A stretch of DNA of 64,000 nt from a virus (lineage: Duplodnaviria > Heunggongvirae > Uroviricota > Caudoviricetes). Below the pieces are notes generated by a model. The model did no database searches and was not told where the DNA came from. It saw only the letters and a program-made list of their open reading frames with translations. The DNA lies in IMG/VR virus record IMGVR_UViG_3300040781_000350; one strand, 5' to 3'. Positions 33,084 to 46,735 of this stretch are shown piece after piece; positions within the stretch are counted from its first letter, which is position 1, and each line of letters starts with the position of its first letter. Position numbers and translations under genes: made by a program.

Positions 33084-33175
33084 ATGCTACAAAGGCAATG
33101 CTAATACCGACTCCTACAATGAAGCCAAACCAAAAAGATCCGTTAAATATCCATTGTGATATTGTAATTTCCATC

Positions 33176-33361: not shown

Positions 33362-33382
33362 ATCTGTATTATATTATAGTTC

Positions 33383-34059: not shown

Positions 34060-34341
34060 CTTTTAAAATATCTATGTTGTGGTGCATGATTACACTCAGT
34101 GATTTATTTGCAACTGTCCACCAACCACAGCACATCTGTTCATGAAGAGAATAATAACCAATGAACTCATCATGAAGCATGTCATAGAACATCTTATCGA
34201 AGATTCTCTCAGCATGTTGTTCATTGCATGCATGAGGTGGTAATAAGCCCAGCTAGTTGCGCTTCTGCATCCGCTTTACAGATTTGCGTTTTACATCGAT
34301 AATCGCTGGTAACCGGATAAACTCCTCATATGTCATTTCGT

Positions 34342-34599
34342 TCATAATACTTCTACATTATCATATGCATGATAGACAATACCTGTTTCCTTTTCAGTAA
34401 ATAGCAATTCAAGATTACCACAACTTAATTCCACCTTGTCCACCACAATTGTTCGTTCACCAGATTCATGTCTACTCCAGTGCCATCCCAGGTACCCACG
34501 AATAGCTTTACCTTCGAATGTGCTCTTTGCCCATGCAAGGTATGAATCACGCATTGCTTTATGCGCTGTCTCTTGTACTTGTTTAATGCTTACGTTCAT
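34342..34599 (-). CDS. hypothetical protein (85 aa)
   Basis: ORF. Confidence 0.45.
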   Translation of the reverse strand: MNVSIKQVQETAHKAMRDSYLAWAKSTFEGKAIRGYLGWHWSRHESGERTIVVDKVELSCGNLELLFTEKETGIVYHAYDNVEVL

Positions 34600-34919
34600 G
34601 AGAAGATCTCCGTATCACCTTTCAAATCAAAGATTGTACCGCAATCAGAGCCCTGCGCGTATGATTCATGTCCATATTGAGCCCCGCCACAGTGGCGAGT
34701 CACCTTATAACCTTTCTGAGAGATACCAATAGTATATTCAGCATCATCACCACCTCTTGCGCGCTCATATTGGAGCATGGCAATAAACTCAGCCAACTCA
34801 TATTTTGTCATCCGTGCACTGGTAACAGAGACGAATGGTTTAATCTTAGCTAGTCTTGGACCTGTTTTACTCATATAACTAGTATATGGTAGTTCCTTAA
34901 ACATGGAGAAACCTTCCAT
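34596..34919 (-). CDS. hypothetical protein (107 aa)
   Basis: ORF. Confidence 0.45.
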   Translation of the reverse strand: MEGFSMFKELPYTSYMSKTGPRLAKIKPFVSVTSARMTKYELAEFIAMLQYERARGGDDAEYTIGISQKGYKVTRHCGGAQYGHESYAQGSDCGTIFDLKGDTEIFS

Positions 34920-34947
34920 TTCTGAAAGGCCTTTCCGTAAAGCTAGT

Positions 34948-35310
34948 TTACATTACTGCTCTGCTTCTAATAAGAGCCTGGCTCATGAGCTTGCTCATGT
35001 GAGTTAGTGCTTTTTGAAGCTCTTCAGAGTCTATATTTCTCTCATCAATTGCCATCTCTGCTTCACCATGAAGTAGATCATAGAAGAACTGCTCTGGTTC
35101 TTCAGCAAGAGTCTTCATTAACTGAGCTGCAACAAGATCGAAATACTCTTCTTCAGGCGATATACTATCAGGCTCTGAGTAGCGCGGATCTCGAGGGTCA
35201 TATTTCGGCTTACGTGCATTTTCCTGTGCTCGTAGTAAATCTGCTGGTGCATCTTCTAAACCACTGTAGGCTTCGTAAATTAGTTTGCTGTCATTGTTGA
35301 TTGTGCTCAT
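34948..35310 (-). CDS. hypothetical acidic protein (120 aa)
   Basis: ORF. Confidence 0.45.
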   Translation of the reverse strand: MSTINNDSKLIYEAYSGLEDAPADLLRAQENARKPKYDPRDPRYSEPDSISPEEEYFDLVAAQLMKTLAEEPEQFFYDLLHGEAEMAIDERNIDSEELQKALTHMSKLMSQALIRSRAVM

Positions 35311-35549
35311 AATATTATTTAATGCGGGGTAGGGCGGGATCTGTATAATCTGCGAATAGCGGGGGTCTTAGTAATCTGCGAGGGATCTGCTCCCGGTTTT
35401 TTGTTTGGCATGCAGATATAACCCTAGTTCCAAAACGGCTCAGATAGTAAAGCGTTCCAACGGTTAACCTTCTCAGACCGGGTTCCTCTGAGCACAAAAG
35501 TTTCTCTAGTTCCAACCCACCTCTCGCTAGACCACTTTGGTTCTCTCTG

Positions 35550-35741
35550 CTACTTCCTCTTTCTATTCGCCTTACGCCTCCTTCGCTCGTTCTTATTCTT
35601 TCTTTTGTTGTTAGGCTTACCCACCTTAGGACTAAATGCATTCATCCATTTACTGTAGTCAGCATTAGCTCTAGCTAAGTCATGACCACTGAATGAAAAT
35701 GTAGGCGCTCCGCTCATGTTACTATTATATGTCTGTTCCAT
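35550..35741 (-). CDS. hypothetical protein with extremely basic C-terminus (63 aa)
   Basis: Ends NNKRKNKNERRRRKANRKRK, a nucleic-acid-binding-like tail. Confidence 0.4.
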   Translation of the reverse strand: MEQTYNSNMSGAPTFSFSGHDLARANADYSKWMNAFSPKVGKPNNKRKNKNERRRRKANRKRK

Positions 35742-35938
35742 TACCTGATAGCAGCTTTGATATCACCTATAGTGTTTACACCTTGCTGTGAGTTATCAAT
35801 AGCGATCACTTCTGTATCGTCTGGTAGTAAAGATGCAATTGGGTTAGTCCATCTCATTCCATTACTACGAAAAGCTACCTCTTCTACATTATCTGGATCG
35901 TTTTTAGTTGGCGCTTTGACTGCAAATGTTGTACTCAT
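35741..35938 (-). CDS. hypothetical protein (65 aa)
   Basis: First gene of the small-gene array. Promoter element at 35941-35961. Confidence 0.45.
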   Translation of the reverse strand: MSTTFAVKAPTKNDPDNVEEVAFRSNGMRWTNPIASLLPDDTEVIAIDNSQQGVNTIGDIKAAIR

Positions 35939-35961
35939 ATGTATATTATATCAGAGTTCCA

Positions 35962-36207
35962 TTACTTAGCTGGCGGCCATGTTAGGCCTGCCTCTTGTAG
36001 CTTAGGTACATCTTCGTCAGCAATATCGAACTCATCCTGAGTAGTGTAGTTAGCTTGTTGATGCTCTCCTAATGTGTCGAAGACCATCTGCTCTGGAATG
36101 AACCACCCATAGTCATTACTACTACCTTTAAAGTACACCCTGACCATATTACGGTCATTGATATGATTGACTGATGCGCTCTTATGCTCTGTGATTTGTA
36201 TTACCAT
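35962..36207 (-). CDS. hypothetical protein (81 aa)
   Basis: ORF in the small-gene array (35.9-45.7 kb), where genes follow a conserved promoter element ending 3-7 nt before the ATG or are operonic. This one is operonic with the gene upstream. Confidence 0.4.
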   Translation of the reverse strand: MVIQITEHKSASVNHINDRNMVRVYFKGSSNDYGWFIPEQMVFDTLGEHQQANYTTQDEFDIADEDVPKLQEAGLTWPPAK

Positions 36208-36217
36208 AATTATCCGA

Positions 36218-36403
36218 TCATGCTTGATGCTCTACACTCTTTGCTTCCTGGACCTGCTTCTGGCGCAGGACAAACTCTTCTACCTCGTCAGCTCTGATGC
36301 TGTACGTCGGTATGTGACGATCATGAAACTCCACTCGATAGAACTCACCTTGTGTGGTTGTTAGCGTGACTTCTTTTAGCTCGATTGTATTTGCTTTGCT
36401 CAT
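36218..36403 (-). CDS. hypothetical protein (61 aa)
   Basis: ORF in the small-gene array. Promoter element at 36407-36426. Confidence 0.4.
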   Translation of the reverse strand: MSKANTIELKEVTLTTTQGEFYRVEFHDRHIPTYSIRADEVEEFVLRQKQVQEAKSVEHQA

Positions 36404-36426
36404 GTCGATATTATATCAAGGTTCCA

Positions 36427-36696
36427 TCACAGCATCGGATTGTGCGGAACGTCATTATCTTCTTCCTCACAAATCTCGTGATAGGCACATCCTCTTAGTA
36501 CGCTATTAGCTTTGTACCGAACTGTACCGGTGAATGCTTCTCGCTTTTCCTTCTTGAGTCCAGCTGCTCGAACGTATCGTTCAGCTTGCTCCCGGGTGTT
36601 AAATGTCGCAACTATCTCTTCTTGTTCTTCAGTCTTGAACTGACCTCCGATATGTGAAAGAAAAACGTGCTCTGTTATACCTATTAGCTTTACCAT
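36427..36696 (-). CDS. hypothetical protein (89 aa)
   Basis: ORF in the small-gene array. Promoter element at 36700-36719. Confidence 0.45.
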   Translation of the reverse strand: MVKLIGITEHVFLSHIGGQFKTEEQEEIVATFNTREQAERYVRAAGLKKEKREAFTGTVRYKANSVLRGCAYHEICEEEDNDVPHNPML

Positions 36697-36725
36697 GTAA
36701 TTATTATATCGTGGTTCCGTGAGTG

Positions 36726-37016
36726 CTAATAAACCGCTACCATACGGTGGCTGAACATTGCAGAGAGCTCTCTCAGATTGAGTGGCTTCTCAGCGATCGT
36801 CAAGAACGCATAACCTTCCAGCTCTTCCTGAACCTCTTCTAAATAAACCTCATCACCTTCCCAATCACCTGACTCATCATTGAACGTCACGCGCTCAAAC
36901 GTCATCAAATTGCTATTGCGATCGAGCGTCATGTCGATGTCTTCGTTCTCGCCTAGGTGCACAAACACCATCATATCGTTGCTGCGCATTGCTGGTAATT
37001 CATTTTTCATATTCAT
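36726..37016 (-). CDS. hypothetical protein (96 aa)
   Basis: ORF in the small-gene array. Start at MNMKNELP. The upstream residues in the ORF track (LEPSYNIV) are the promoter element read in frame. Confidence 0.45.
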   Translation of the reverse strand: MNMKNELPAMRSNDMMVFVHLGENEDIDMTLDRNSNLMTFERVTFNDESGDWEGDEVYLEEVQEELEGYAFLTIAEKPLNLRELSAMFSHRMVAVY

Positions 37017-37187
37017 AACAATATTATATGATGGTTCCAATACGGCTATCCGATCAGTCCGACTGCGTTTGCAATCATCACTGCTACAAGCACGACAATA
37101 CCGAACAGTACAACTTTTGCTATTGTTTTGAAGCTCCAACTATTATTTGGTCCAATCATTTTATTTCCCTTTGTTTTTGTTATTTGT

Positions 37188-37577
37188 TTATGCAGCAGTC
37201 TCTTCTACTAACTGCTCTCCATGAAAGCGTCGTGCCCACACCTCTTTGATATGCTCTTTCTGCTCTCTTGTAGATGAAAGGGATACGTACTGCAATCGTA
37301 GCAGGCGCTTGTAACCGCTAAGGTCTTCTACGATGTTGCCATCACCATCGTGCTGCTTTTCATGACGAACCAGACCTCGGCCCTTCTTCGAAACATACTC
37401 AGCGAGGAACTTCTCGTAACTGTTGTCGTATTTCTTCTCAATCAAGCCAGCTAGATACTTGTGATGGAATGCATTTTCCTCACCGGTAACAGTGCACTTG
37501 ACTTTGACCGTGCAGTTAAAAGCTTGCTTACCATCAGCAAACTCGTAGTTGTATAATTTTTTAGCTTTCTTTTCCAT
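37188..37577 (-). CDS. hypothetical protein (129 aa)
   Basis: ORF in the small-gene array. Start at MEKKAKK, 4 nt after the stop of the upstream micro-gene. Confidence 0.45.
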   Translation of the reverse strand: MEKKAKKLYNYEFADGKQAFNCTVKVKCTVTGEENAFHHKYLAGLIEKKYDNSYEKFLAEYVSKKGRGLVRHEKQHDGDGNIVEDLSGYKRLLRLQYVSLSSTREQKEHIKEVWARRFHGEQLVEETAA

Positions 37578-37581
37578 AATG

Positions 37582-37668
37582 TTAAACGTCAATTGCAAAG
37601 TACATCACCATCGCTGCATAGGCTGCAACTACTGTAATGACTGCTATGTGAATGATTAAATGTTTCAT
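37582..37668 (-). CDS. 28-aa hydrophobic micropeptide (putative)
   Basis: ORF in the small-gene array. Sequence MKHLIIHIAVITVVAAYAAMVMYFAIDV, a single transmembrane helix. Promoter element at 37671-37690. Confidence 0.35.
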   Translation of the reverse strand: MKHLIIHIAVITVVAAYAAMVMYFAIDV

Positions 37669-37670
37669 AC

Positions 37671-37690
37671 TGATATTATATCGAGGTTCC
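37671..37690 (-). promoter_or_regulatory. conserved early-type promoter-like element
   Basis: Copy of the conserved early-type promoter-like element, reading tgatattatatcgaggttcc. Its TATAAT hexamer also supplies the TAA stop of the upstream gene. Confidence 0.55.
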
Positions 37691-37849
37691 GAAAAGGTAC
37701 TCATCATATGCTGCCTCATCAGAAGCTTCATATTCTGCTTTATGTAGTGCAATTTCATAATCTGCTTCATCTCGCAGAAATTGCGCTGCTTCAGCTGCTT
37801 GCCATGTATCAATATATTGATCGCGATCGTGTTCTTCTAGATGTGCCAT
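37676..37849 (-). CDS. hypothetical acidic protein (57 aa, not in ORF track)
   Basis: ORF in the small-gene array. Hand-translated as MAHLEEHDRDQYIDTWQAAEAAQFLRDEADYEIALHKAEYEASDEAAYDEYLFGTSI. Its TAA stop lies inside the TATAAT of the next promoter element. Confidence 0.35.
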   Translation of the reverse strand: MAHLEEHDRDQYIDTWQAAEAAQFLRDEADYEIALHKAEYEASDEAAYDEYLFGTSI

Positions 37850-37870
37850 ACCAATATTATATCAGAGTTC

Positions 37871-38143
37871 CTAGAGGGAGTTACGTTTAATGCATCCTGC
37901 TTGGTACTGAAGACGATCTGTATCTTTCAACCAATTCGCAACGAATGTCTTGAGAGGGTACTCAGCATACAATCCATCTTTCCTTCCGCCGATGTGATGA
38001 AAGCCATAATGAGCATTCACATCAATACCTTCGCTGGTAAGAAAGTCAAGATGGGTTCCGAGATCCCATTCCGGATGAATCAGAGTGCTTTGAGCTACCG
38101 AAACTTTTGCTAAATCGAATGTCTGTATTTGCGTTTTTATCAT
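37871..38143 (-). CDS. hypothetical protein (90 aa)
   Basis: ORF in the small-gene array. Promoter element at 38144-38165. Confidence 0.45.
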   Translation of the reverse strand: MIKTQIQTFDLAKVSVAQSTLIHPEWDLGTHLDFLTSEGIDVNAHYGFHHIGGRKDGLYAEYPLKTFVANWLKDTDRLQYQAGCIKRNSL

Positions 38144-38165
38144 ACCAATATTATATCAGGGTTCC
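38144..38165 (-). promoter_or_regulatory. conserved early-type promoter-like element
   Basis: Example copy of the conserved promoter-like element found before nearly every minus-strand gene start in the window. On the plus strand it reads (acc)aatattatatcagggttcc. In minus-strand sense it is GGAACC-CT-GATATAAT-ATTGGT-ATG, an extended -10 (TGnTATAAT) ending 6 nt before the start codon. This copy reads ccaatattatatcagggttcc. Variants occur with 0-6 substitutions. Confidence 0.6.
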
Positions 38166-38259
38166 GAGATGTGATTAGCACCATACTAGCTGTTCAGCAT
38201 CAACATCTAGCTTACGAAGATACTCTTCACGTGCATATCGTTCCTGACGAGCCTTCACT

Positions 38260-38775
38260 TTACGATCGCGCTCTTCTTGAGCTAGTCGACGAGCTTCCTT
38301 CATCCTTAGCAACTTGCTCGTTACCAACAATGATCTCAGCTGCAAGTTCCTCATCGAGCGTCTTCAACCATGCTCGGAACTCCTCGCAATCTTCCTTTGA
38401 TGTCTTAACGACAGCCCATGCATCGTTAAAGTCAACACTCTTATCGAACTTTACGATATGACCAGGGCTGCAACCGCATGAACATCCAGCATTGCGTGAG
38501 TAATGAATACTCTTCACATCAGAAAGAATTTCCTTGATTGCTGCATTAACTGCACGATTGCACTTGCGAAGAACTTTGTTCCAAGTCTTGCACTTAAAGT
38601 CTAGATTATAAATCTTCTTTTCATTGAACCAATCATCTGCGATCGTCATCACACTTTCTTCCTCTTTAGGTGTCTCAGTGTAGATGACCGCTCGGGTGCT
38701 GTGTGAAGGAGCCCAACCATTGCGGCTCTTTGACATCATTTTGTTTCGAATTTCTGCTGTGGTGTTATTTTTCAT
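38260..38775 (-). CDS. hypothetical protein (171 aa)
   Basis: ORF in the small-gene array. Promoter element at 38778-38797. Confidence 0.45.
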   Translation of the reverse strand: MKNNTTAEIRNKMMSKSRNGWAPSHSTRAVIYTETPKEEESVMTIADDWFNEKKIYNLDFKCKTWNKVLRKCNRAVNAAIKEILSDVKSIHYSRNAGCSCGCSPGHIVKFDKSVDFNDAWAVVKTSKEDCEEFRAWLKTLDEELAAEIIVGNEQVAKDEGSSSTSSRRARS

Positions 38776-38777
38776 AC

Positions 38778-38797
38778 CAATATTATATCAGGGTTCC
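38778..38797 (-). promoter_or_regulatory. conserved early-type promoter-like element
   Basis: Copy of the conserved early-type promoter-like element, reading ccaatattatatcagggttcc. In this copy a TTGATC -35-like hexamer sits 18 nt upstream of the TATAAT. Confidence 0.6.
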
Positions 38798-38807
38798 AAT
38801 ACGGCGA

Positions 38808-39128
38808 TCAACCTGCGTCCCAACCATATGGCTTGCAAAGGAACGGCTTACCATCTACATCAACCAGATCACCTACTGATACGCTATACAGAGGACCATC
38901 ATCAGCTCGGAACTTTTCTTCGAAGCGAGCTTCTTCGCTGTCCATGTCCATAAAATCACGTGGCTTGTTTGTAGCTGTGAACACCCACTCAGCAGCCTTT
39001 TCCTGCTCGACCACTCCGTCTGGAAGATCATACTCAAATACTAAGTGGCGAGTTAGGTTATCGAGCTCCTCATCGGTTGCTCCAAATGCTTGGCGTGTGT
39101 CGGTTGGTCGGTATAATTTAATTTTCAT
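38808..39128 (-). CDS. hypothetical protein (106 aa)
   Basis: ORF in the small-gene array. Promoter element at 39131-39150. Confidence 0.45.
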   Translation of the reverse strand: MKIKLYRPTDTRQAFGATDEELDNLTRHLVFEYDLPDGVVEQEKAAEWVFTATNKPRDFMDMDSEEARFEEKFRADDGPLYSVSVGDLVDVDGKPFLCKPYGWDAG

Positions 39129-39130
39129 AC

Positions 39131-39150
39131 TGCGATTATATCAGGGTTCC
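39131..39150 (-). promoter_or_regulatory. conserved early-type promoter-like element
   Basis: Copy of the conserved early-type promoter-like element, reading tgcgattatatcagggttcc. The upstream flank CACATCTC is shared with the copy at 38144. Confidence 0.6.
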
Positions 39151-39159
39151 GAGATGTGG

Positions 39160-39339
39160 CTAGAGTCGAATCTTGATCATCTGTTCCAACCAAGCATGGA
39201 CCTCTTCAATAGTGTCAGCATCTTCTGCACCTTCAACATGATCCATAAACACATCCTCATACCATGTCTCAAAGCTTCCGCTCATCAACAGATTGTAAAC
39301 GCCTTTTGCAACTTCTTCTGTGGTGTGTGTATCTTTCAT
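39160..39339 (-). CDS. hypothetical protein (59 aa, not in ORF track)
   Basis: ORF in the small-gene array. Hand-translated as MKDTHTTEEVAKGVYNLLMSGSFETWYEDVFMDHVEGAEDADTIEEVHAWLEQMIKIRL. Promoter element at 39342-39361. Confidence 0.35.
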   Translation of the reverse strand: MKDTHTTEEVAKGVYNLLMSGSFETWYEDVFMDHVEGAEDADTIEEVHAWLEQMIKIRL

Positions 39340-39360
39340 ATTGATATTATATCGAGGTTC

Positions 39361-39690
39361 CTAGAAGTGATAGAGCGTTGAGCTCTTGTTGTCCTTATCG
39401 ATGCAATTCGTATGCCAATTGTGCATGTAAGCTGGGGTATACTTCTTGCGATGCTCATCGTATTTGTCTTTGCGGCAAATACGCACCTTACCGTAGAAAG
39501 TTCCTAGAGCGCCATACCCGCGATCCTTTTGCGTGACTTTTGTCTTGAACTGTTTGCGATTCTCTTTAAGCCAATCAGTAGCTTCCTTTCTACTCTCAAA
39601 GCCAAGATCGTACATGAGGTAGTTCGTATTGCGTCCAGTGATGCCTTCTGCATAGGCATTTGTATAAGTCATCCAAATAATATATTTCAT
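39361..39690 (-). CDS. hypothetical protein (109 aa)
   Basis: ORF in the small-gene array. Promoter element at 39694-39713. Confidence 0.45.
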   Translation of the reverse strand: MKYIIWMTYTNAYAEGITGRNTNYLMYDLGFESRKEATDWLKENRKQFKTKVTQKDRGYGALGTFYGKVRICRKDKYDEHRKKYTPAYMHNWHTNCIDKDNKSSTLYHF

Positions 39691-39719
39691 ACAATTATTA
39701 TATCAGGGTTCCGTGAGGG

Positions 39720-39974
39720 CTACACACCTGGCAGCTCGAACTTCACATACCAGTGTGATTGATTTGCGAGCGATGCTCCTCCTCGGAACGGCTTCCATTT
39801 ATCGCCGGTAGCAAGAATGATTGCTTCTGGGAAAGCTTTCCTTACTTTCTCCTCGAGCATCTCTGATGTGTACCCATTTCGGTAAAAGTAACCTTTGCGT
39901 ACTGTAAAGATGCCTTTGCTCTTGCTGACGTGGTTTCCGATCTTTTCTTCGACTTGACGTGATGTAATTTTCAT
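39720..39974 (-). CDS. hypothetical protein (84 aa), MKxIT N-terminus family
   Basis: ORF in the small-gene array. Starts MKITSRQVEEK. Promoter element at 39977-39996. Confidence 0.45.
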   Translation of the reverse strand: MKITSRQVEEKIGNHVSKSKGIFTVRKGYFYRNGYTSEMLEEKVRKAFPEAIILATGDKWKPFRGGASLANQSHWYVKFELPGV

Positions 39975-39999
39975 ATGGTTATTATATCGAGGTTCCATG

Positions 40000-40509
40000 C
40001 TAGATGTTGTGGATGATCTTACCTGCAATTTTGATCTTGCGAAGTGATGATATTTTGTAATCACGTTCTGGTATTTCCTTCTCGATGCCTACTGCTTGCT
40101 GAGTAGCTGTTGGTGCTGCTTTAGGCAAGAATGGCTTTAGTTCCGCTAGAGGAATCTCAACTCCAGTCTCCTTATCGATGTAATAAGTTTTGCCGTTCAG
40201 CTGTTGAGGCTTGACGCTCAAGTATTGCTCACCTTTATGATGAATGATGAAGCGATGTTCCTCATCACGAACACCCCAACGACGAGGCTTAGCTTTGAAA
40301 ATAGCTTCCTTCCCCTCACGTTCGAGCTGACGATTAACGCCTGCTTCGTAGTTAGTTCCGATCAAGCCGCCAACGAATGCAACCTTGATGACGCGTCCAA
40401 AGTATGGATTGTTCGTCTTGTTCATGCGAGGCTCGGTATGAGCTTCGAATGAGATTGGTGTAGTGCCATTATTGGCATTTTCGATGATGTGGTGTACGAT
40501 GTTTTTCAT
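40000..40509 (-). CDS. hypothetical protein (169 aa)
   Basis: ORF in the small-gene array. Promoter element at 40513-40532. Confidence 0.45.
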   Translation of the reverse strand: MKNIVHHIIENANNGTTPISFEAHTEPRMNKTNNPYFGRVIKVAFVGGLIGTNYEAGVNRQLEREGKEAIFKAKPRRWGVRDEEHRFIIHHKGEQYLSVKPQQLNGKTYYIDKETGVEIPLAELKPFLPKAAPTATQQAVGIEKEIPERDYKISSLRKIKIAGKIIHNI

Positions 40510-40530
40510 AATCAGATTATATCTAGGTTC

Positions 40531-40722
40531 CTAGACGTCCAGTCTGTATGCTGTAACTACTAGATCATCGATCTCACTCTCTTTCTGAGCAATTTGCTTC
40601 TCTAAATAAGCTAGTGCATCATCAGGTGCATCCTTATTCATCGCAAGTGTATGATAATATTCATGCAAGATGCTCAATTGTGCCTCAGCATGCTCCAATT
40701 TTTGTAGTGGTGTCTTTTCCAT
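40531..40722 (-). CDS. hypothetical coiled-coil protein (63 aa)
   Basis: ORF in the small-gene array. Start at MEKTPLQ. Promoter element at 40725-40744. Confidence 0.4.
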   Translation of the reverse strand: MEKTPLQKLEHAEAQLSILHEYYHTLAMNKDAPDDALAYLEKQIAQKESEIDDLVVTAYRLDV

Positions 40723-40833
40723 ACCAACATTATATCTAGGTTCCAAGACATGAAAGGACTCGAGCCACACCACATAACTCGAGTCCCGACCCCCTTGGGT
40801 CAACCACCTTTTGCCAACCACGGCACATGAAAA

Positions 40834-41049
40834 TTATTCTTCCGGTTCCTTAAAAATTTCGTCTTGCTCTCCTGGCAAAAGACCAGTCATAAGAAATTCT
40901 CGCTCAGTTGCATTGAGCATCGGAAAGGCTTCCTGAATCATCATGCCGTCTTTCCATTTTTTGTTGCACTCGAGAAACTCTTGCGAGCTAATATTGAGAT
41001 GCATCTCATTTGTTTTGCCTGTCAGTGGATTGGTTTTTGTGATCTTCAT
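40834..41049 (-). CDS. hypothetical protein (71 aa)
   Basis: ORF in the small-gene array. Promoter element at 41053-41072. Confidence 0.4.
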   Translation of the reverse strand: MKITKTNPLTGKTNEMHLNISSQEFLECNKKWKDGMMIQEAFPMLNATEREFLMTGLLPGEQDEIFKEPEE

Positions 41050-41061
41050 AATGTTATTATA

Positions 41062-41349
41062 TTACTGTTCCGTTTCAGCAAGACGCTCGTTATATTTTGC
41101 AAGAATATGATCTTCAACCCTCTTGTATGAACCCCAGCAACTTGATGGCACATGATTGTAGATGAATACAATGAGCTTTCTGAGCTCATCACTCTCTTGA
41201 GGACAATTATCATATCGTCCGTAAGCACCGAAGAGATCATTTGCAAGTACTGCATTGATAAACCCTCCTGGCTCATAACCATTCTCGATATAGTCCATCA
41301 TCGTCTGAGCAAACCGTTTCGGACACTTGTTGTAATCTATTTCAAACAT
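41062..41349 (-). CDS. hypothetical protein (95 aa)
   Basis: ORF in the small-gene array. Promoter element at 41352-41371. Confidence 0.45.
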   Translation of the reverse strand: MFEIDYNKCPKRFAQTMMDYIENGYEPGGFINAVLANDLFGAYGRYDNCPQESDELRKLIVFIYNHVPSSCWGSYKRVEDHILAKYNERLAETEQ

Positions 41350-41375
41350 ATATTATTTTATCAGGGTTCCGTCAC

Positions 41376-41612
41376 CTAAACGTTGTTCGGTCCAGTACCA
41401 ACTCGATCAGATACTTTATCGAGATAGTCATAAAGGAATTCAATTTGCGCTAATCGAGCGAGATCCATATTGTTATCGAGATTCGCTTCGCGTTCGAAAC
41501 TGTTGAGTTGTTCCTCGAGAGCTTCAAACATATATGTCATATGCATCTGACGCTCATCAGTTGACATTTGTTTGTACTTTGTAGTGTATTTAATTTTCTG
41601 TGCTTGATTCAT
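41376..41612 (-). CDS. hypothetical protein (78 aa)
   Basis: ORF in the small-gene array. Promoter element at 41615-41634. Confidence 0.45.
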   Translation of the reverse strand: MNQAQKIKYTTKYKQMSTDERQMHMTYMFEALEEQLNSFEREANLDNNMDLARLAQIEFLYDYLDKVSDRVGTGPNNV

Positions 41613-41638
41613 ACTACGATTATATCAGGGTTCCGAAA

Positions 41639-41917
41639 TTAGAACTCCTTCTTAAAGCTGATGCATGTGACTGTTTGGCCGCGCATCCATCGAGCGGAAC
41701 GATTGATCTCATGATCATATACCTCGAATGTATAAAGCTCGAATGCTTTGGTGAGCATGTCTTTGATCATGCGCTTTGCTGCATCATCGTAGTTACAATT
41801 CGTTTTGATGCGAACTGTTCCGTCTTTGCGTACATCTCGGAAATAATTTCCTGGTGTAACAGTGCGTGTTGACGCGATTAATACTCGAATGTCTCTAATG
41901 GTTGGTGCTGTAATCAT
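41639..41917 (-). CDS. hypothetical protein (92 aa)
   Basis: ORF in the small-gene array. Start at MITAPTIRD. Promoter element at 41918-41939. Confidence 0.45.
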   Translation of the reverse strand: MITAPTIRDIRVLIASTRTVTPGNYFRDVRKDGTVRIKTNCNYDDAAKRMIKDMLTKAFELYTFEVYDHEINRSARWMRGQTVTCISFKKEF

Positions 41918-42001
41918 ACTATTATTATAAGAAGGTTCCAAGAATGGAAAGCTGCCAGCTCTTTCGAACTGACAGCCCAAGTCGTTTCCGCCCTCCATTC
42001 A

Positions 42002-42514
42002 CTAACCGAAATGCGCTGTCAATACTTTGTTCATGCATACTCGAAGTTCCTTCAAGTCAGCAATCAGCGCATCTCGTGAGTAAAGTTCCAATACCTTCAC
42101 TACATCATGCTTGTACGAATCAAGCTTGCTTACTAGCGTAGGTTTGTCTTTGATAAAATCGTAGTAGTCACCATCAGCTTTGACTGTTCCGTCTCTCTCG
42201 TTGATAGCATACTCCATGTAATTACAGACCTCTTTGTCATAACCAAGTACTTCACAAACGGTGTAAATTCGCATGCGATGACTCAGATCGCAATCACCGG
42301 TAACAAGTTCCTTAGCAAGGTTGTAACCGGAACGTTTTGTTGGCCAAGGACCATCTTTTACATATTTAAATGCTCCTTCTTCAACTTCCAAATTGTTCCA
42401 GAACTTCCAATGATCGTATGGGTAAGTATTCTCCCATGCCCCATCGGAGAGCTGCCCGAGAATCTCATGTTCGAAAAGAGCTTTGAGCCGTTTTGGTAAT
42501 GTCAATATATTCAT
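42002..42514 (-). CDS. hypothetical protein (170 aa)
   Basis: ORF in the small-gene array. Here the promoter element (42548-42566) sits about 30 nt upstream, so this gene has a leader. Confidence 0.45.
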   Translation of the reverse strand: MNILTLPKRLKALFEHEILGQLSDGAWENTYPYDHWKFWNNLEVEEGAFKYVKDGPWPTKRSGYNLAKELVTGDCDLSHRMRIYTVCEVLGYDKEVCNYMEYAINERDGTVKADGDYYDFIKDKPTLVSKLDSYKHDVVKVLELYSRDALIADLKELRVCMNKVLTAHFG

Positions 42515-42579
42515 AATGTGTGCGGTTGTTATTGCTTAATTGCAACTATATTATAAAAGGGTTCCGTTCTGGCTAACCC

Positions 42580-42702
42580 CTAAATTGATGCAAGTAGCAC
42601 GATACCTAAACCGATTGCGAGGCCGATTAGCCAGCTACCTAGCAAGGCACCTATGCAAGTTAAAAAGGCGACAAATGCGAGAGCGTTTGGATTAATATTC
42701 AT
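42580..42702 (-). CDS. 40-aa hydrophobic micropeptide (putative, not in ORF track)
   Basis: ORF in the small-gene array. Hand-translated as MNINPNALAFVAFLTCIGALLGSWLIGLAIGLGIVLLASI, with one or two transmembrane helices. Confidence 0.3.
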   Translation of the reverse strand: MNINPNALAFVAFLTCIGALLGSWLIGLAIGLGIVLLASI

Positions 42703-42811
42703 AATGTGTTCCGTGTTCTAGATAATGTTTAATTGTTCCTGCTTCCTCTTCATCGATGCAGTGACTGATTAAAGGATCTATAATCATTTGTTCAATACAG
42801 GAACGTTCCTG

Positions 42812-42846
42812 TTCCAGTTCCGTGGCGGCGGCTATTACCCTTACTG
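42812..42846. repeat. perfect 11-bp GC-rich inverted repeat flanked by GGAAC/GTTCC repeat clusters
   Basis: GTGGCGGCGGC-tattacccttact-GCCGCCGCCAC. Upstream is ggaacgttcctgttccagttcc (42789-42811). Downstream is ctgttcctgttccactaaacgttccagttccagttcc (42857-42892). Confidence 0.7.
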
Positions 42847-42901
42847 CCGCCGCCACTTGTTCTATCTGTTCCTGTTCCACTAAACGTTCCAGTTCCAGTT
42901 C

Positions 42902-43240
42902 CTACACTCGTTGTGGATCGAAAATATGGAACACTGTCACTTGTGTGTTCCGCATAATATCACTCACATTATACTTCGGGTCATCTTTCAAGGAACTGAT
43001 GCCAAACCCTCGCAGGTATTGAGAGATTGCCAATGTGTGGCCAGCTGTAACAACTGCACTGACATTCAATCGTGATAGTTCCTCTACTACCTTCTCGAGG
43101 ATCGATAACGGAACAACCTTCTCGATCTTAATACGATACCGACCATCTTGATGACGATCATTATAATGAGTAACACAAGTCAAATCGACTCCATGTTTCT
43201 CAATTGCATTGCGAACTTCTTTATATGTGATGTTTTTCAT
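42902..43240 (-). CDS. hypothetical protein (112 aa), MKNIT N-terminus family
   Basis: ORF in the small-gene array. Start at MKNITYKEV. Promoter element at 43241-43262. Confidence 0.45.
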   Translation of the reverse strand: MKNITYKEVRNAIEKHGVDLTCVTHYNDRHQDGRYRIKIEKVVPLSILEKVVEELSRLNVSAVVTAGHTLAISQYLRGFGISSLKDDPKYNVSDIMRNTQVTVFHIFDPQRV

Positions 43241-43263
43241 ATCGATATTATAAAAGGGTTCCA

Positions 43264-43788
43264 TTACGCTGCAATCAGCTCTCTAACAATCAGCTTGCCG
43301 AGAGTTTCATGCTTCTTTCCGATCATGTACCGATCTCTGTTGATCTTGTTGAGCTGGAACCCTTTTGGTATGCGAGCTTTTTTCGCATAGATGACTCCTG
43401 TTTCAACATTCATGATAGCATATAAGAGCTTTTTACGACTGCGAGCAACAACATGTTCTGTAATATCTGTTTTGCCATTTGCAAGACGTGTAGGAGATGC
43501 TCCAATTTCTCTACAGATGCGCTTCCAACGATAGTCATGCCTGCAGCATTCACCATGACGATGATAAGCAAGTGCGTGAGCGATCTCATGCAGCATCGTA
43601 TCGAGAACCTCTTCCTCTTTACCAACACGGCACAATGTTTGATTGATTGCGAGAGTGCGATCGCGGTAGCGGCATTGACCGTATGTACGATAAGCACTCT
43701 TCTTTAGCAACCGCGGGCGCCATCCATGTTTGTCGAGGCCGTGCTGCTCAATTAACTTTCTGTACGTTGTTAGTGGTGTCATCATCAT
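43264..43788 (-). CDS. SprT-like zinc metallopeptidase domain protein (putative)
   Basis: ORF in the small-gene array. 174 aa. HEIAHALAYH contains the HExxH motif, with a C-x-H…C cluster downstream, in a SprT-like layout. Start at MMMTPL. Promoter element at 43791-43810. Confidence 0.4.
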   Translation of the reverse strand: MMMTPLTTYRKLIEQHGLDKHGWRPRLLKKSAYRTYGQCRYRDRTLAINQTLCRVGKEEEVLDTMLHEIAHALAYHRHGECCRHDYRWKRICREIGASPTRLANGKTDITEHVVARSRKKLLYAIMNVETGVIYAKKARIPKGFQLNKINRDRYMIGKKHETLGKLIVRELIAA

Positions 43789-44015
43789 ACTACGATTATA
43801 TCTGGGTTCCAAAAAGGCAAAACCATTTAAGATCATCGCAAATCTCTATAGAGGCGAGCCGCTAAGCTCGGGTTTTAACCCCTCAGTATCAGTAGGTCGA
43901 TGCAGTCACCTATCATCAGCTTTAATTTAAAGACGAGCTGGTTCGATTGCGTCTCCATCCGCGTTTAGGGTCTGTGATGGGTTCGACCTTGCGATAAATT
44001 ATTGTATCAGTGTTC

Positions 44016-44192
44016 CTATTCAACAACTGCTTCAATGCCATGATCAACTGCTTCACTGACCTTAACACCATTACGCATATGGTTAAGAGCAATCTGCTGC
44101 GCTTTGTTCATCTGTGTTAGTGTTAGCACAACAGCAAAGTCATTGCGTGCAACTTGTTCAATTGTCTGTAGGCTGGCGTCTCTAATTTTCAT
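44016..44192 (-). CDS. hypothetical protein (58 aa)
   Basis: ORF in the small-gene array. Start at MKIRDAS. Promoter element at 44195-44214. Confidence 0.4.
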   Translation of the reverse strand: MKIRDASLQTIEQVARNDFAVVLTLTQMNKAQQIALNHMRNGVKVSEAVDHGIEAVVE

Positions 44193-44261
44193 ACGGTTAT
44201 TATATTGTGGTTCCATGCACATATTTAATGTGAACAACCGATTAAATATGCATCCATAATA

Positions 44262-44519
44262 TTATCGATTAGTTGCGAAGCGAGGAACAAAGCAGTTCTC
44301 AACCACTCCAGTTCGGCGGTTCATGTTTGTGACAATACCACAAATGTCATGCATAAATTCAACTCGTGGAGCTTCATGTAAACGCTCCCAATTCATTCCC
44401 ATATCATCTGCATTGAGCAGATCCATGACAAGTGTCATGCGGTCAATTTTGATGCCCATCTCGGTGAATTCATCTTCAGCGCGATCAGCTACTTTGGTCA
44501 TTATTTCTAGTGGTCTCAT
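44262..44519 (-). CDS. hypothetical protein (85 aa)
   Basis: ORF in the small-gene array. Promoter element at 44522-44541. Confidence 0.45.
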   Translation of the reverse strand: MRPLEIMTKVADRAEDEFTEMGIKIDRMTLVMDLLNADDMGMNWERLHEAPRVEFMHDICGIVTNMNRRTGVVENCFVPRFATNR

Positions 44520-44540
44520 ACTCAGATTATAAGAAGGTTC

Positions 44541-45014
44541 CTACCTGTGCTTGACTGCTAATGTAACACTTGCATGATAGTTACAAGGCATGACCTGTAC
44601 GCTATGTACATTAACTGGCTCGGAAAGTTCCATCCATTGCTGTAATGCTGGAACTAAATCTTCATTTGGATCATCCCATGTACCTGTATTGATATCAAAG
44701 CTGATGTTCACGCTTCTAATTTCGCGATTAGGCTTAGGTAGTTCTATTTCCTTACCTTGTTCAAAGCGAAGACCATAGCATGATTGCGAAGCAAGAGCAA
44801 TTGCGATGTCAGCAACATGACCTTTAAATGTTCCAAGCTGCTTAGTAGTGCGACCTTCACAGTCACCTTCTGTTGTAACCTTCCATATACCTTCTGGAGG
44901 ACCGACAGTGTCTTGCATTTTGTTCCAGATATCACGCTGTCGTTCGACAGCACTATCTCGGCGTTTAAGTTCCTGAGCTAGCTGCTCAGATGTAAATTGT
45001 TTAAGGCTATCCAT
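44541..45014 (-). CDS. hypothetical protein (157 aa)
   Basis: ORF in the small-gene array. Operonic with the gene upstream (TAA-T-ATG junction). Confidence 0.45.
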   Translation of the reverse strand: MDSLKQFTSEQLAQELKRRDSAVERQRDIWNKMQDTVGPPEGIWKVTTEGDCEGRTTKQLGTFKGHVADIAIALASQSCYGLRFEQGKEIELPKPNREIRSVNISFDINTGTWDDPNEDLVPALQQWMELSEPVNVHSVQVMPCNYHASVTLAVKHR

Positions 45015-45015
45015 A

Positions 45016-45171
45016 TTAGCCTACGATCTTATATTCGTCGCGCATGCTATCTGCTAATGACATCTTGACCGACTTAAGAGTGATGCCCGGAACTTTGCAT
45101 AGTGCATATTCTTCACGTGCACGTTCGGTCACAAGCTTGTTAAATTCTTTCTGTGTGATGGTTGTTTTCAT
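45016..45171 (-). CDS. hypothetical protein (51 aa, not in ORF track), MKTTIT N-terminus
   Basis: ORF in the small-gene array. Hand-translated as MKTTITQKEFNKLVTERAREEYALCKVPGITLKSVKMSLADSMRDEYKIVG. Variant promoter element at 45174-45194. Confidence 0.35.
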   Translation of the reverse strand: MKTTITQKEFNKLVTERAREEYALCKVPGITLKSVKMSLADSMRDEYKIVG

Positions 45172-45195
45172 AAGTGGTATGTTAAGAGGGTTCCA

Positions 45196-45420
45196 TTATG
45201 GCTCTTTACGAAGAGATGGATGACATGTCTCATTAAAGCCTTCAAACCATGCAGCATTTTCGAGCTCATTTTGTTCGACCTTCTTAGTCATCTCTGGTGT
45301 ATCATGTCTTCTATGACCTAAACGAAATGGTCCACCTGGTGTGTAATCCCAGTTCTCAGAACCATCAAACTTAAGACCGGTCAGGCGACCATCTTTGTAT
45401 GCTTTAATGTTTGATTTCAT
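45196..45420 (-). CDS. hypothetical protein (74 aa)
   Basis: ORF in the small-gene array. Variant promoter element at 45424-45444. Confidence 0.45.
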   Translation of the reverse strand: MKSNIKAYKDGRLTGLKFDGSENWDYTPGGPFRLGHRRHDTPEMTKKVEQNELENAAWFEGFNETCHPSLRKEP

Positions 45421-45446
45421 GTCGCTATGTTAAGAGGGTTCCAAGA

Positions 45447-45641
45447 TTAATCATCACCGAATAAGTTGTCATTGTCCCATTGATCACAAGCACGAACTAG
45501 ATCAGTGATGACCTGCTCACGACCAACATTGAATGCGAAGCGAATGAATGTTAAACACCCATGATCATATACACCTGGTATGTTCCGGCCGCGTGCTTCA
45601 GCGAGTGATTCGATTGCTTGTTCGTATGTGATTGTTTTCAT
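45447..45641 (-). CDS. hypothetical protein (64 aa), MKTITYE N-terminus
   Basis: ORF in the small-gene array. Start at MKTITYEQAIE. Variant promoter element at 45642-45662. Confidence 0.45.
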   Translation of the reverse strand: MKTITYEQAIESLAEARGRNIPGVYDHGCLTFIRFAFNVGREQVITDLVRACDQWDNDNLFGDD

Positions 45642-45678
45642 GCCTCTAGTATAGAGAGGTTCCAATCCAGCTCAGAAC

Positions 45679-45694
45679 GGAACAGTGATATAAT
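45679..45694 (+). promoter_or_regulatory. promoter-like element in plus-strand orientation (P1) at the edge of the noncoding region
   Basis: GGAACAGTGATATAAT read directly on the plus strand. This is the same element as the minus-strand family but inverted. No ORF follows it. Confidence 0.5.
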
Positions 45695-45790
45695 ATGTGT
45701 ACAGCCAGATCGTGTCGTGAGCGAAATGCAGAGCCCGAGGGGTTGGCGAGAACTCCCTTGAGATATGGACCTGCTCCATCTCGGAAAAAA

Positions 45791-45806
45791 GGAACTGTGA
45801 TATAAT
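45791..45806 (+). promoter_or_regulatory. promoter-like element in plus-strand orientation (P2)
   Basis: GGAACTGTGATATAAT on the plus strand, followed by about 340 nt of GC-rich ORF-free sequence. Confidence 0.5.
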
Positions 45807-45809
45807 TGA

Positions 45810-46150
45810 TGTGCTCCACCTACCTGCCTAACAAGGATTGCCGGGATGGAAGGAGCAGAGATCTAGAGCTAGAGAGCAAACTACTCACCCTAGAGCGGAA
45901 AAGACCGGATGGGTTGCTAATGAAGAGTTTATAGGCCCCCACGCCTAGGCGGATCCAAACGGTCCAGCTATGCTTCTCTATAGAAATCCAGCTAAAAATG
46001 CTGGTAATGCGCCAGGTGCATAGGGAGTTAGAAGATTCTAACTTCAGGGTCGCCCGTCCGGATTCTCGCCCGGGTGAATTTACGCCCGTTTTGCCGCTCT
46101 GTAACTCGTTGAGAGGGTATGAGTTTACAGCCGATCCTGGCACGTAGTTC
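45810..46150 (+). ncRNA. candidate structured noncoding RNA (GC-rich, ORF-free) downstream of plus-strand promoter P2
   Basis: No ORF of 60 aa or more on either strand apart from compositionally implausible Ser/Leu/Arg-rich ones. Many short hairpins (CCAGCtaaaaatGCTGG, TTAGAAgaTTCTAA, CCTAGG palindrome, three CGCCCG repeats). GC content is far above the local mean. Its identity is unknown. Confidence 0.35.
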
Positions 46151-46151
46151 T

Positions 46152-46167
46152 GGAACCATGATATACT
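46152..46167 (+). promoter_or_regulatory. promoter-like element in plus-strand orientation (P3, degenerate -10)
   Basis: GGAACCATGATATACT on the plus strand, followed by an ORF-free AT-rich then purine-rich region. Confidence 0.4.
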
Positions 46168-46385
46168 AGTGTTTTAATTTAACAGTGAGATAGCAGCCAT
46201 GTAATAGATACACATAATAATATACGTAGACGTGCATATGAAGCGCTATATATGAAGCGCTTAGGGCTCTCCGAGAGCCACGTAAGGATATATACGTGGG
46301 GTAATAATAAATGCCCGGGATAGCCAGGACGAATCTGCTATTGCAAGCGGGCTCAACTTGTGCGTATAGCTAGAAAGGAACACCT

Positions 46386-46490
46386 GCGCGGGAGATCGCG
46401 AGAGAAAGTGCGGGAGAGATAGCGCGCAGTGCGATAAGAGAGCGAGCGCGGGTGGGAGGGAGAAAATTTGAGCGGGAGACCTAACCAAAT
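46386..46490 (+). repeat. purine-rich degenerate repeats (GCGGGAGA motif about 5 times)
   Basis: gcgcgggagatcgcgagagaaagtgcgggagagatagcgcgcagtgcgataagagagcgagcgcgggtgggagggagaaaatttgagcgggagacc has a strongly GA-rich plus strand. Confidence 0.6.
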
Positions 46491-46735
46491 ACCCGCTTAG
46501 ATTCTATCATTTCCGTGCCCTCATATACCTCTCCTCACATAACCCTCTTGACTTTTCATACCTTGCTTAGCCTCTCCTCTAGGCTATTGCTCACATCAAC
46601 AACAACCCTGCATCCATCATTAGTAGATATTACATTCACACTTATATGTTCATCCTCTATCTCCACACCATGATTTTTCATCATGCTCTTTACCCTCTCT
46701 TTTATACCGCTTTTAAAATTATCATCTACCATTTT

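Follow-up and report, generated by a model that had tools for sequence, protein, structure and literature searches.

A promoter cassette that ends at the start codon predicts leaderless mRNAs in the small-gene array of an uncultured T4-like phage

A stretch of 64,000 nucleotides (nt) from the IMG/VR virus record IMGVR_UViG_3300040781_000350, hereafter called the window, carries on its minus strand, at positions 35741 to 45665, a dense array of small genes. Most of these genes are preceded by a conserved 25-nt cassette, GGAAC(C)-N4-TATAAT-N5-T-ATG, which has the appearance of a promoter and ends at the start codon. The cassette has neither a −35 box nor a Shine–Dalgarno (SD) sequence, its geometry predicts leaderless mRNAs, it is paired with late-type promoters that stand in the same register, and it is common to a clade of marine T4-like phages. 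We consider it likely that most genes of the array are driven by this cassette, which would give rise to leaderless mRNAs, and that the array belongs to the hyperplastic region of a marine T4-like myophage.

A Dense Array of Small Genes with a Shared Promoter Cassette

The array comprises 32 open reading frames (ORFs) of 28 to 174 amino acids (aa), and a 33rd ORF adjoins it at 35550–35717. A codon-frame log-odds score, trained on 19 long genes outside the array, is positive and best in the called frame for 33 of these 33 ORFs, and is approximately zero for ORFs of the flanking ORF-poor stretches. The result extends to five micro-ORFs that had been called by hand in an earlier note on this DNA (37676–37849, 39160–39339, 45016–45171, 37582–37668, and 42580–42702), whose scores range from +0.13 to +0.70. 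That note had described the block as a dense array of tiny, mostly orphan genes typical of the hyperplastic regions of T4-like phages, and this description is borne out. No Pfam or PHROG family was matched by 27 of the 33 proteins, and the genome carries T4 core genes (Portal_T4, T4-gp15, gp13, Gp23, and Peptidase_S77). The array is probably a hyperplastic small-gene region, and the data support the view that the block behaves as a set of small, mostly orphan, nonstructural genes with individual promoters.

The clue to a DNA motif was that ORF translations show the same peptide, EPRYN..M, ahead of many genes. The pattern GGAAC-N5-TATAAT-N6-ATG occurs 33 times in the window compared to 0.00 times expected from 100 shuffles; all copies are on the minus strand, and 22 of them lie within 35.7–44.6 kb. 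A repeat finder independently recovered the cassette as a dispersed family of 17 to 21 copies, and some pairs share 30 to 35 nt that include the upstream flank and the first codons. When the variants TATACT, TAACAT, and TAAAAT are included, 26 of the 32 genes of 35741–45665 have a cassette of their own. The cassette takes up the whole of the intergenic gaps, which measure 21 to 32 nt, and it is often overlapped by stop codons, either as TAGGAAC or as a TAA within TATAAT.

The repeated element had also led to the proposal that each gene possesses its own promoter and is its own transcription unit. The first half of this proposal stands for the 26 genes with a cassette, but not for every gene, and the second half does not hold. 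Intrinsic terminators are not enriched (11 versus 8.1 ± 3.3), and the 26 cassettes are accompanied by two clear hairpins (41940–41978 and 40745–40787) and one weak candidate. Because terminators are rare and the spacers consist wholly of cassette, these genes have their own promoters without being separate transcription units.

The Start Codon Coincides with the Predicted Transcription Start Site

The distance between the −10 hexamer and the start codon is fixed in most copies of the cassette. Of the GGAAC-TATAAT sites, 33 of 44 in the window and 219 of 300 in related contigs have the ATG exactly 6 nt past TATAAT, and a T is present at −1 in 235 of 298 sites of the related contigs. RNA polymerase carrying sigma-70 prefers to start on the seventh base after the −10 element, at a purine (+1) that follows a pyrimidine (−1). 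Given that the ATG begins exactly 6 nt past TATAAT, its A is the seventh base after the −10 element. This base therefore occupies the modal bacterial start site and follows a pyrimidine, and transcription is predicted to begin on the start codon. Judged from this geometry, leaderless mRNAs are quite probable.

No −35 box is conserved among the aligned cassettes, and sigma-70 −35/−10 pairs are not enriched (32 versus 25.5 ± 5.4). The 4-nt spacer between GGAAC(C) and the −10 element often forms the TGn of an extended −10 promoter. SD-like 4-mers precede a small minority of window ORFs, which by a rough estimate is about the level set by base composition, and genes that lack a cassette carry A-rich upstream sequence in place of an SD. 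The cassette therefore has the arrangement by which leaderless genes are recognized: a −10 element (TANNNT) 6 to 7 bp before AUG or GUG, in the absence of a −35 or an SD. In Deinococcus, a −10 motif 6 to 7 bp upstream of ORFs, again with no −35, has been demonstrated experimentally to yield leaderless mRNAs (PMC12340547). The Deinococcus–Thermus genes share the position of the −10 element and the lack of −35 and SD sequences with the cassette genes, but there the leaderless arrangement is a host-wide trait of another phylum, has no conserved upstream box, and is not known from T4-like phages or marine hosts.

Four other interpretations of the motif were rejected on the grounds of misfits in spacing or sequence, namely a sigma-54 promoter (−24/−12), a promoter for an extracytoplasmic function (ECF) sigma factor (−35 GGAAC with a 16- to 17-bp spacer), an archaeal TATA box with transcription factor B recognition element (BRE), and the Bacteroidota −7 element (TAnnTTTG).

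Late-Type Promoters Stand in the Same Register

A second motif, [AT]TAAATA, is located 5 to 6 nt before the start codons of the genes for portal, gp15 (GTG start), gp13, prohead protease, and other structural proteins. Late-type [AT]TAAATA(AT) sites are present in window positions 1–5000, at 8151, 19727, 62713, and 63857, and in positions 1–9900 of contig L168. The motif resembles the late-promoter consensus of T4, KVP40, and cyanophages, TATAAATA / NATAAATA, which is gp55-dependent (PMC2984593). Its register next to the start codon is kept in relatives of this phage and in Pelagibacter phage HTVC008M (TATAAATAG-N4-ATG). In contrast, the late motif of cyanophage Syn9 is found 22 to 27 nt upstream of the start. 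The [AT]TAAATA sites look like a second promoter class in the register of the cassette, and this would make the leaderless design a genome-wide one.

A wider proposal can be stated only tentatively, and we judge it somewhat more apt to fail than to hold. It is that a clade of abundant, uncultured marine T4-like phages expresses essentially its whole genome in leaderless form (in HTVC008M, the late genes at least) from two minimal promoter classes that end at the start codon, one with GGAAC box and −10 element for nonstructural genes and one of gp55 type (ATAAATA) for structural genes, that a phage factor reads GGAAC together with a phage RpoD-like sigma, and that the cassette doubles as a shuffling unit.

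Two further occurrences of the late-type motif were observed. Some genes other than structural genes also carry [AT]TAAATA(AT) 5 to 6 nt before the start, and the gene at 35310–34948, just below the array, is preceded by ATTAAATAATATT-ATG.

The Cassette in Related Contigs and Its Possible Role in Gene Shuffling

A scan of IMG/VR for the exact cassette pattern returned 65 loci, of which 35 have 2 to 20 strand-specific copies. The related contigs (given L numbers here) encode portals that are 65 to 69% identical to the portal of this phage, and they appear to come mostly from marine samples, as judged from IMG sample identifiers rather than from a tool result. One of them, L021, contains 21 cassette-driven genes of 53 to 118 aa within 10 kb. 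Taken together, the related loci encode 198 unique cassette-driven proteins, whose median length is 71 aa; 86% of them are no longer than 120 aa. Only four to five array genes have homologues in relatives (among them g39339, g41049, g39128, and g35938), in altered order, and there is no near relative from which an indel map could be drawn. The homologues of g41049, g39339, and g39128 are found in a different order and neighborhood in L021 and L030.

The nearest described system is formed by the PeSL and PmSL cassettes of T4-type hyperplastic regions. A PeSL consists of a stem-loop, −35, N17, −10, SD, and start codon, is repeated between orphan genes, and has been implicated in their shuffling (PMC4122927; PMC2839356). 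As in the present array, such short promoter modules occupy nearly every intergenic space ahead of small, mostly orphan genes. However, three of the four defining features of a PeSL are missing here: the −35 and the SD are absent, stem-loops are nearly so, and an SD would find no room because the ATG is 6 nt past the −10 element. Only the present cassette has a GGAAC box 4 nt from the −10 element and a start codon at +1. With PeSLs, gene content is shuffled between relatives; the same may apply here, as distant relatives alone suggest.

This resemblance leads to the strongest alternative, in which the cassettes are primarily PeSL-like recombination modules whose patches of homology allow single genes to be shuffled between coinfecting phages, and whose shared N-terminal codons mark the junctions. 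Beyond the PeSL precedent (PMC4122927), the repeat family of 17 to 21 copies with its 30- to 35-nt pairs and the reordered homologues in L021 and L030 are as expected for such modules. The array also differs from its surroundings both in GC content (42–44% versus 35–38%) and in box subtype, as GGAACC is present in 23 of 27 cassettes inside the array and in 3 of 18 outside. However, the other copies of this phage are 99.99 to 100% identical and there is no near relative in which indels bounded by cassettes could be seen, a homology of 25 nt is short for homologous recombination, and the stem-loop part of a PeSL is largely missing. We give this alternative a little less than an even chance. It is compatible with promoters that yield leaderless mRNAs, of which it may be the evolutionary side.

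The compositional difference extends over positions 32000–46000, which form an island wherein the array has a GC content of 41–44% compared to 35–38% elsewhere in the window. Outside the array, the box reads GGAACA or GGAACT in 15 of 18 cassettes. The island and the box subtype could reflect either a distinct temporal subclass of genes or import from another lineage.

The GGAAC Box and a Possible Phage Factor

GGAAC occurs on the minus strand about twice as often as expected (117 versus 55), and it forms clusters that lack a −10 element. Eight pentamers with a period of 6 lie around an 11-bp GC hairpin (GTGGCGGCGGC/GCCGCCGCCAC) at 42790–42902, and four others with a spacing of approximately 27 nt lie at 35431, 35458, 35486, and 35513. 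Because the pentamer is in excess and clustered without a −10 element, the existence of a separate GGAAC-binding factor is suggested, and 42790–42902 is a candidate cluster of its binding sites. Database gene callers translate this same cluster within a GTG-started ORF of 62 aa.

An RpoD-like sigma factor of 377 to 387 aa that includes regions 1.2 to 4 is encoded by several relatives, namely L030 (2887–4020), L043, L044, L045 (197 kb), and L170 (10001–11164; 191 kb); L002 is also listed among the contigs that carry it. In L030 and L170 the sigma gene itself is located behind a cassette with a 7-nt gap. The nearest solved structures are those of proteobacterial RpoD, which gives only a weak hint as to the host. 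Many near homologues exist in marine metagenomes, and no close counterpart was found among cultured phages.

One possibility raised by these data is that the cassettes are middle-type promoters whose use requires the phage RpoD-like sigma or a MotA-like activator that recognizes GGAAC, as opposed to immediate-early promoters served by host sigma, such that the array would be delayed-early or middle in timing. The absence of a −35, the conserved upstream box one helical turn from the −10 element, the GGAAC clusters without −10 at 42790–42902 and 35431–35513, the relatives' sigma gene behind the same cassette, and the existence of two cassette subtypes are all consistent with this proposal. However, the 74 kb examined yielded no such factor, host sigma-70 by itself can suffice for extended −10 promoters, and no other promoter class is enriched in the array region as would be expected of a true early class. 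In T4, middle promoters likewise lack a −35, combine an upstream box with a sigma-70 −10 element, and serve nonlate genes. They differ in that the MotA box (TGCTTtA) is centered at −30, about 12 bp upstream of the −10 element, rather than at −22 to −17 with a 4-bp spacer, and in that T4 transcripts have leaders with SD sequences; no motA or asiA homologue was detected in the sequence examined. We regard a middle-promoter identity as possible but rather doubtful. Early timing of the array is likewise an assumption, on which only the difference between its promoter class and the late-type motif bears.

Shared First Codons, Probably Without Shared Ancestry

Five cassette genes encode proteins whose N-termini fit MK[NTI]?[IT]T, compared to 1.07 ± 0.93 in column shuffles (p ~0.001), and three of these read MK[NT]IT[YR][EK][EQ][AV]. 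The earlier note had viewed the N-terminus as the signature of a diversifying paralogue family. Although the pattern is real, the shared part ends at approximately residue 9, and paralogy was not found. An all-versus-all BLASTP comparison of the array proteins revealed no paralogues (best E = 0.086), and Smith–Waterman alignments of the candidates past residue 10 gave z scores of −1.0 to 1.7, which is the level of shuffled sequences. One pair, g43240 and g41917, is marginal, with a Smith–Waterman z of 2.1 that is uncorrected for 21 tests. Among 5.8e9 proteins, g43240 has no homologue but itself, so it offers no profile with which paralogy could be sought.

The beginnings of the cassette genes are biased in composition. 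Codons 2 to 8 contain 50% A and 12% G, compared to 32–35% A and 22–23% G further in, and K, N, T, and I make up 51% of residues 2 to 6 versus 24% elsewhere. The 198 nonhomologous cassette-driven proteins of the relatives show the same A-rich start bias. Composition alone does not explain the local excess of MK(N/T)IT, because the exact pattern occurs in only 2 of those 198 proteins. In the three most similar N-termini, nucleotide identity is contiguous with the promoter and extends over about 15 nt of coding sequence (ATGAAAAACATCAC). Most simply, the first codons can be read as part of the expression cassette, as a result of selection for an A-rich, unstructured 5′ end combined with copying of cassettes along with a few codons. 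A subset of cassettes that share these 15 nt of coding sequence would then produce the MK(N/T)IT N-terminus without protein paralogy.

A family of paralogous early proteins for host takeover and anti-defence, with the N-terminus as a remnant of common ancestry, is therefore not supported, and we consider it improbable. It could draw on the statistical excess of the pattern, on the three nearly identical N-termini, on the z of 2.1 for g43240 and g41917, and on the established role of small orphans in T4-type hyperplastic regions as a source of anti-defence proteins (PMC4122927). However, the candidates range widely in length, from 51 to 173 aa, they show no similarity by BLASTP or by alignment past residue 10, their shared part coincides with nucleotide identity that is contiguous with the promoter (ATGAAAAACATCAC), and no known anti-defence family in Pfam, PHROGs, or NCBIfam was matched.

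It is equally improbable that the motif is no promoter but acts on RNA, serving within long polycistronic transcripts for processing or for SD-independent ribosome loading. The genome has no SD signal and so needs some other means of start selection, the motif is at a fixed distance to the ATG, and in Bacteroidota, A/T-rich sequence upstream of start codons can boost SD-independent initiation. However, TATAAT is the exact sigma-70 −10 consensus and frequently has a TGn, copies of the cassette without ATG are present on the opposite strand of an ORF-free region, structural genes carry at the same position the T4 late consensus, which is a DNA signal for gp55, and array genes without a cassette start without the motif.

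A Proposed Mode of Expression and Points Against It

Based on these data, we return to leaderless expression from the cassette and propose the following scheme. The phage genome would be approximately 200 to 220 kb in size, with the array as its hyperplastic region of nonstructural small genes. Each cassette would position GGAAC(C) at −22 to −17, a 4-nt spacer, TATAAT at −12 to −7, and a 6-nt discriminator that ends in T immediately before the ATG. Transcription would then start on the ATG, and the resulting leaderless mRNA would be translated by 70S ribosomes without an SD. The first codons, rich in A and poor in G and reading as MK or MN followed by I and T, may be part of the initiation signal. 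Because a cassette fills each 21- to 32-nt gap and terminators are rare, the array would produce nested, overlapping transcripts wherein every gene is 5′-proximal on its own mRNA. The polymerase is probably a sigma-70-type holoenzyme, either the host's own or a form with a phage RpoD-like sigma such as the relatives encode, and recognition of the GGAAC box probably involves a further factor.

Several findings weigh against this scheme. Six genes of the array have no cassette, and the cassette of g42514 is followed by a 26-nt leader. The predicted absence of leaders is derived entirely from spacing. The exact MK[NTI]?[IT]T pattern is rare in relatives, as noted above. Neither the 64-kb window nor the adjoining 10 kb on its left yielded a homologue of sigma, MotA, or AsiA, and the relatives' sigma does not explain the GGAAC box because its −35 recognition helix, judged by eye, looks canonical (VTRERIRQIEAKAIRKL). 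The host was sought by scanning 185,579 species genomes for the motif, which gave only single chance matches.

Leaderless phage transcripts would have a precedent elsewhere, as the middle and late transcripts of Thermus phage phiYS40 are reportedly leaderless, a finding attributed to Sevostyanova and coworkers (2007). The literature searched contains no description of leaderless expression in T4-like phages, which is not proof of novelty.

Genes of the Array

The genes are presented in the direction of transcription, and all features up to the lower edge of the array are on the minus strand. The first is g45641 (64 aa, MKTITYEQ...; 45447–45663), whose cassette reads GGAACCTCTCTATACTAGAGGCATG and whose codon score is +0.62. 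It is followed by g45420 (74 aa; 45196–45442), with the variant cassette GGAACC-N4-TAACAT-N6-ATG, and by the hand-called micro-ORF g45171 (51 aa; 45016–45194), with a TAACAT variant that has a 7-nt gap and a codon score of +0.36. The next gene, g45014 (157 aa; 44541–45014), lacks a cassette and starts 2 nt past the preceding stop. Its product belongs to phrog_7661 (E = 5.5e-21) and has 41 homologues with an invariant VTTEGDCEGR, and an AlphaFold2 (AF2) model with a predicted local distance difference test (pLDDT) value of 90.7 matched no fold in PDB. Two genes with cassettes follow, g44519 (85 aa; 44262–44541), which encodes a DUF6874 protein (Pfam PF21779, E = 1.6e-19), and g44192 (58 aa; 44016–44214), which is supported by its coding score.

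Approximately 170 nt at 43836–44016 have no coding signal, as the ORF at 43875–43958 scores −0.34. A cassette-like promoter without an ATG (GGAACACTGATACAAT) is present and is followed by a weak hairpin and a T-run. This stretch may represent a small RNA, or a decayed or lost gene cassette.

The presence of a SprT-like HExxH protein at 43264–43788 had been predicted and is confirmed. The gene, g43788 (43264–43810 overall), has a cassette and encodes a 174-aa SprT-like zinc metalloprotease with the motif HEIAH (PF10263, E = 1.7e-12, at 47.6 bits versus the Pfam cut-off of 25.6; NCBIfam NF003421, 1.5e-5). Directly below it is the cassette gene g43240 (MKNITYKEV...; 42902–43262), whose 112-aa product is a true orphan. 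Public gene callers mis-start such genes by translating the promoter: their protein P0001 equals g43240 preceded by MEPFYNID, and their SprT protein has 190 aa instead of 174 aa. Micro-ORFs are called inconsistently among assemblies of identical DNA (L162–L167).

Below the GGAAC cluster, a 31-aa ORF at 42692–42787 is uncertain, with a score of +0.39 versus +0.11 for the GTG-started 62-aa form of the database callers. The hand-called g42702 (42580–42702) has no cassette, overlaps the upstream ORF through ATGA, scores +0.29, and encodes a 40-aa single-helix membrane micropeptide. Two such micropeptides had been reported within the array, whereas three are present (28, 37, and 40 aa). Next is g42514 (170 aa; 42002–42565), the unique case wherein the cassette is followed by a leader of ~26 nt without an SD; its product has a weak match to phrog_24869. 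The hairpin at 41940–41978 (−24.8 kcal/mol) resembles an intrinsic terminator and precedes a T-rich tail.

Cassettes and coding scores support g41917 (92 aa; 41639–41939) and g41612 (78 aa; 41376–41634), and g41349 (95 aa; 41062–41370) has a TAAAAT variant cassette with a 5-nt gap. The cassette gene g41049 (71 aa; 40834–41071) belongs to phrog_20898 and has homologues in six related contigs. The second terminator-like hairpin, at 40745–40787, was read by eye as GGGACTCGAG...CTCGAGTCC followed by TTTCATGTCTT. Downstream are two more cassette genes, g40722 (63 aa; 40531–40744), supported by its coding score, and g40509 (169 aa; 40000–40531), whose product belongs to a large uncharacterized family of 1423 clusters and is modeled with an Sm/WYL-like beta-barrel.

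The next six genes each have a cassette. These are g39974 (84 aa, MKITSRQ...; 39720–39996) and g39690 (109 aa; 39361–39712), both supported by coding scores; the hand-called micro-ORF g39339 (59 aa; 39160–39361), which is conserved in L021 and L062; g39128 (106 aa; 38808–39150), with homologues in six related contigs; g38775 (171 aa; 38260–38797), with a weak match to phrog_26333; and g38143 (90 aa; 37871–38165), supported by its coding score. An extra ORF at 38175–38303 encodes a charged 42-aa product (MKEARRLAQEERDRK...; MKEARRLAQEERDRKVKARQERYAREEYLRKLDVDAEQLVWC), scores +0.24, is called in L164, and overlaps g38775 over its final 43 nt in a different frame. It is probably an additional overlapping gene, the alternative being a frameshifted C-terminus of g38775.

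The hand-called g37849 (57 aa; 37676–37871) has a cassette, a score of +0.70, and a stop codon that lies within the next TATAAT. That TATAAT is followed by g37668 (37582–37690), also called by hand, which has a perfect cassette, scores +0.13, and encodes the 28-aa membrane micropeptide. Neither g37577 (129 aa; 37188–37577), which also lacks an SD, nor g37159 (37046–37159), which encodes the 37-aa membrane micropeptide, has a cassette. Cassettes and coding scores support g37016 (96 aa; 36726–37038), g36696 (89 aa; 36427–36718), and g36403 (61 aa; 36218–36425), and g36207 (81 aa; 35962–36207) is without a cassette. The lowest genes, g35938 (65 aa; 35741–35960), with a 65% identical homologue in L003, and g35717 (55 aa; 35550–35739), which has a highly basic tail and lies just beyond the range considered earlier, both have a cassette.

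In total, six of the 33 proteins can be placed in a family, namely those of g43788, g44519, g45014, and g41049 and, by weak PHROG matches, those of g38775 and g42514; NCBIfam adds no further families. Structural searches covered two array proteins. No match to known anti-defence families was found in Pfam, PHROGs, or NCBIfam, among which there is no dedicated anti-defence library. A putative anti-defence role for array proteins is a reasonable expectation.

Noncoding Flanks and Genome Context

The upper boundary of the array is an ORF-free, GC-rich region at 45670–46560, which carries GGAAC at 45680, 45791, and 46153 on the plus strand. Its three cassette-type promoters point in the opposite direction to those of the array and have no ATG at +1. 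Within this region, the 338 nt at 45813–46150 fold better than 100 of 100 shuffles (z = −2.4), and three GCGGGAGA repeats are present at 46388–46480. The region may produce phage noncoding RNAs or may be origin-like. At the lower edge, 235 nt at 35315–35550 are ORF-free, and their structure is not significant (z = +0.3). Neither 46175–46500 nor 35315–35560 has significant structure, and no conservation was seen in the related loci examined. No tRNA genes, tmRNA genes, or Rfam families were found, even when the ORF-free flank was searched at E ≤ 1.

The left end of the 64-kb window encodes the T4 portal gp20 (Pfam E = 3.8e-97) and the gp15 sheath stabilizer, and Gp23, the prohead protease (Peptidase_S77), and gp13 are encoded just to the left of the window. 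Elsewhere the window carries genes of nucleotide metabolism and RNA repair, namely those for thymidylate synthase, DNA ligase, a radical-SAM protein, CCA-adding enzyme, a Thg1-like protein, RNA ligase, a PNK-like kinase, denV, and cREC_REC. Several of these form an RNA-repair and tRNA gene cluster at 13000–24600 (radical SAM, CCA-adding enzyme, Thg1-like, PNK-like AAA_33, RNA ligase with OB domain, metallophosphatase, and cREC_REC), which suggests a countermeasure to host defences that cleave tRNA.

The portal is at most 31 to 33% identical to any among 50,697 phage records, and a megablast search of the same records with the array gave no match. Six metagenome or SRA assemblies contain the window sequence at 99.99 to 100% identity, on contigs of 201 to 221 kb. 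Because near-identical sequence is found in six assemblies, the source is a real, clonal, uncultured T4-like myophage.

Significance for Marine T4-Like Phages

With the cassette, true start codons can be located to the exact base without the use of gene callers, and the same rule can be applied to reannotate hundreds of small genes of marine phages, given that public pipelines mis-start cassette genes and miss micro-ORFs. The approximately 33 small proteins of the array, which appear to be expressed, are candidates for screens of host takeover and anti-defence activity, and they include three membrane micropeptides, a SprT-like protease, an Sm/WYL-like protein, and two conserved families without a solved fold. 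The minimal module of promoter plus start codon may also be the recombination unit of the hyperplastic region. T4-type phages are the textbook case of mRNAs with leaders and SD-led translation. If the prediction made here is correct, a leaderless T4-like lineage would shed light on translation in the uncultured marine host and on the way in which phages adapt their signals for expression.

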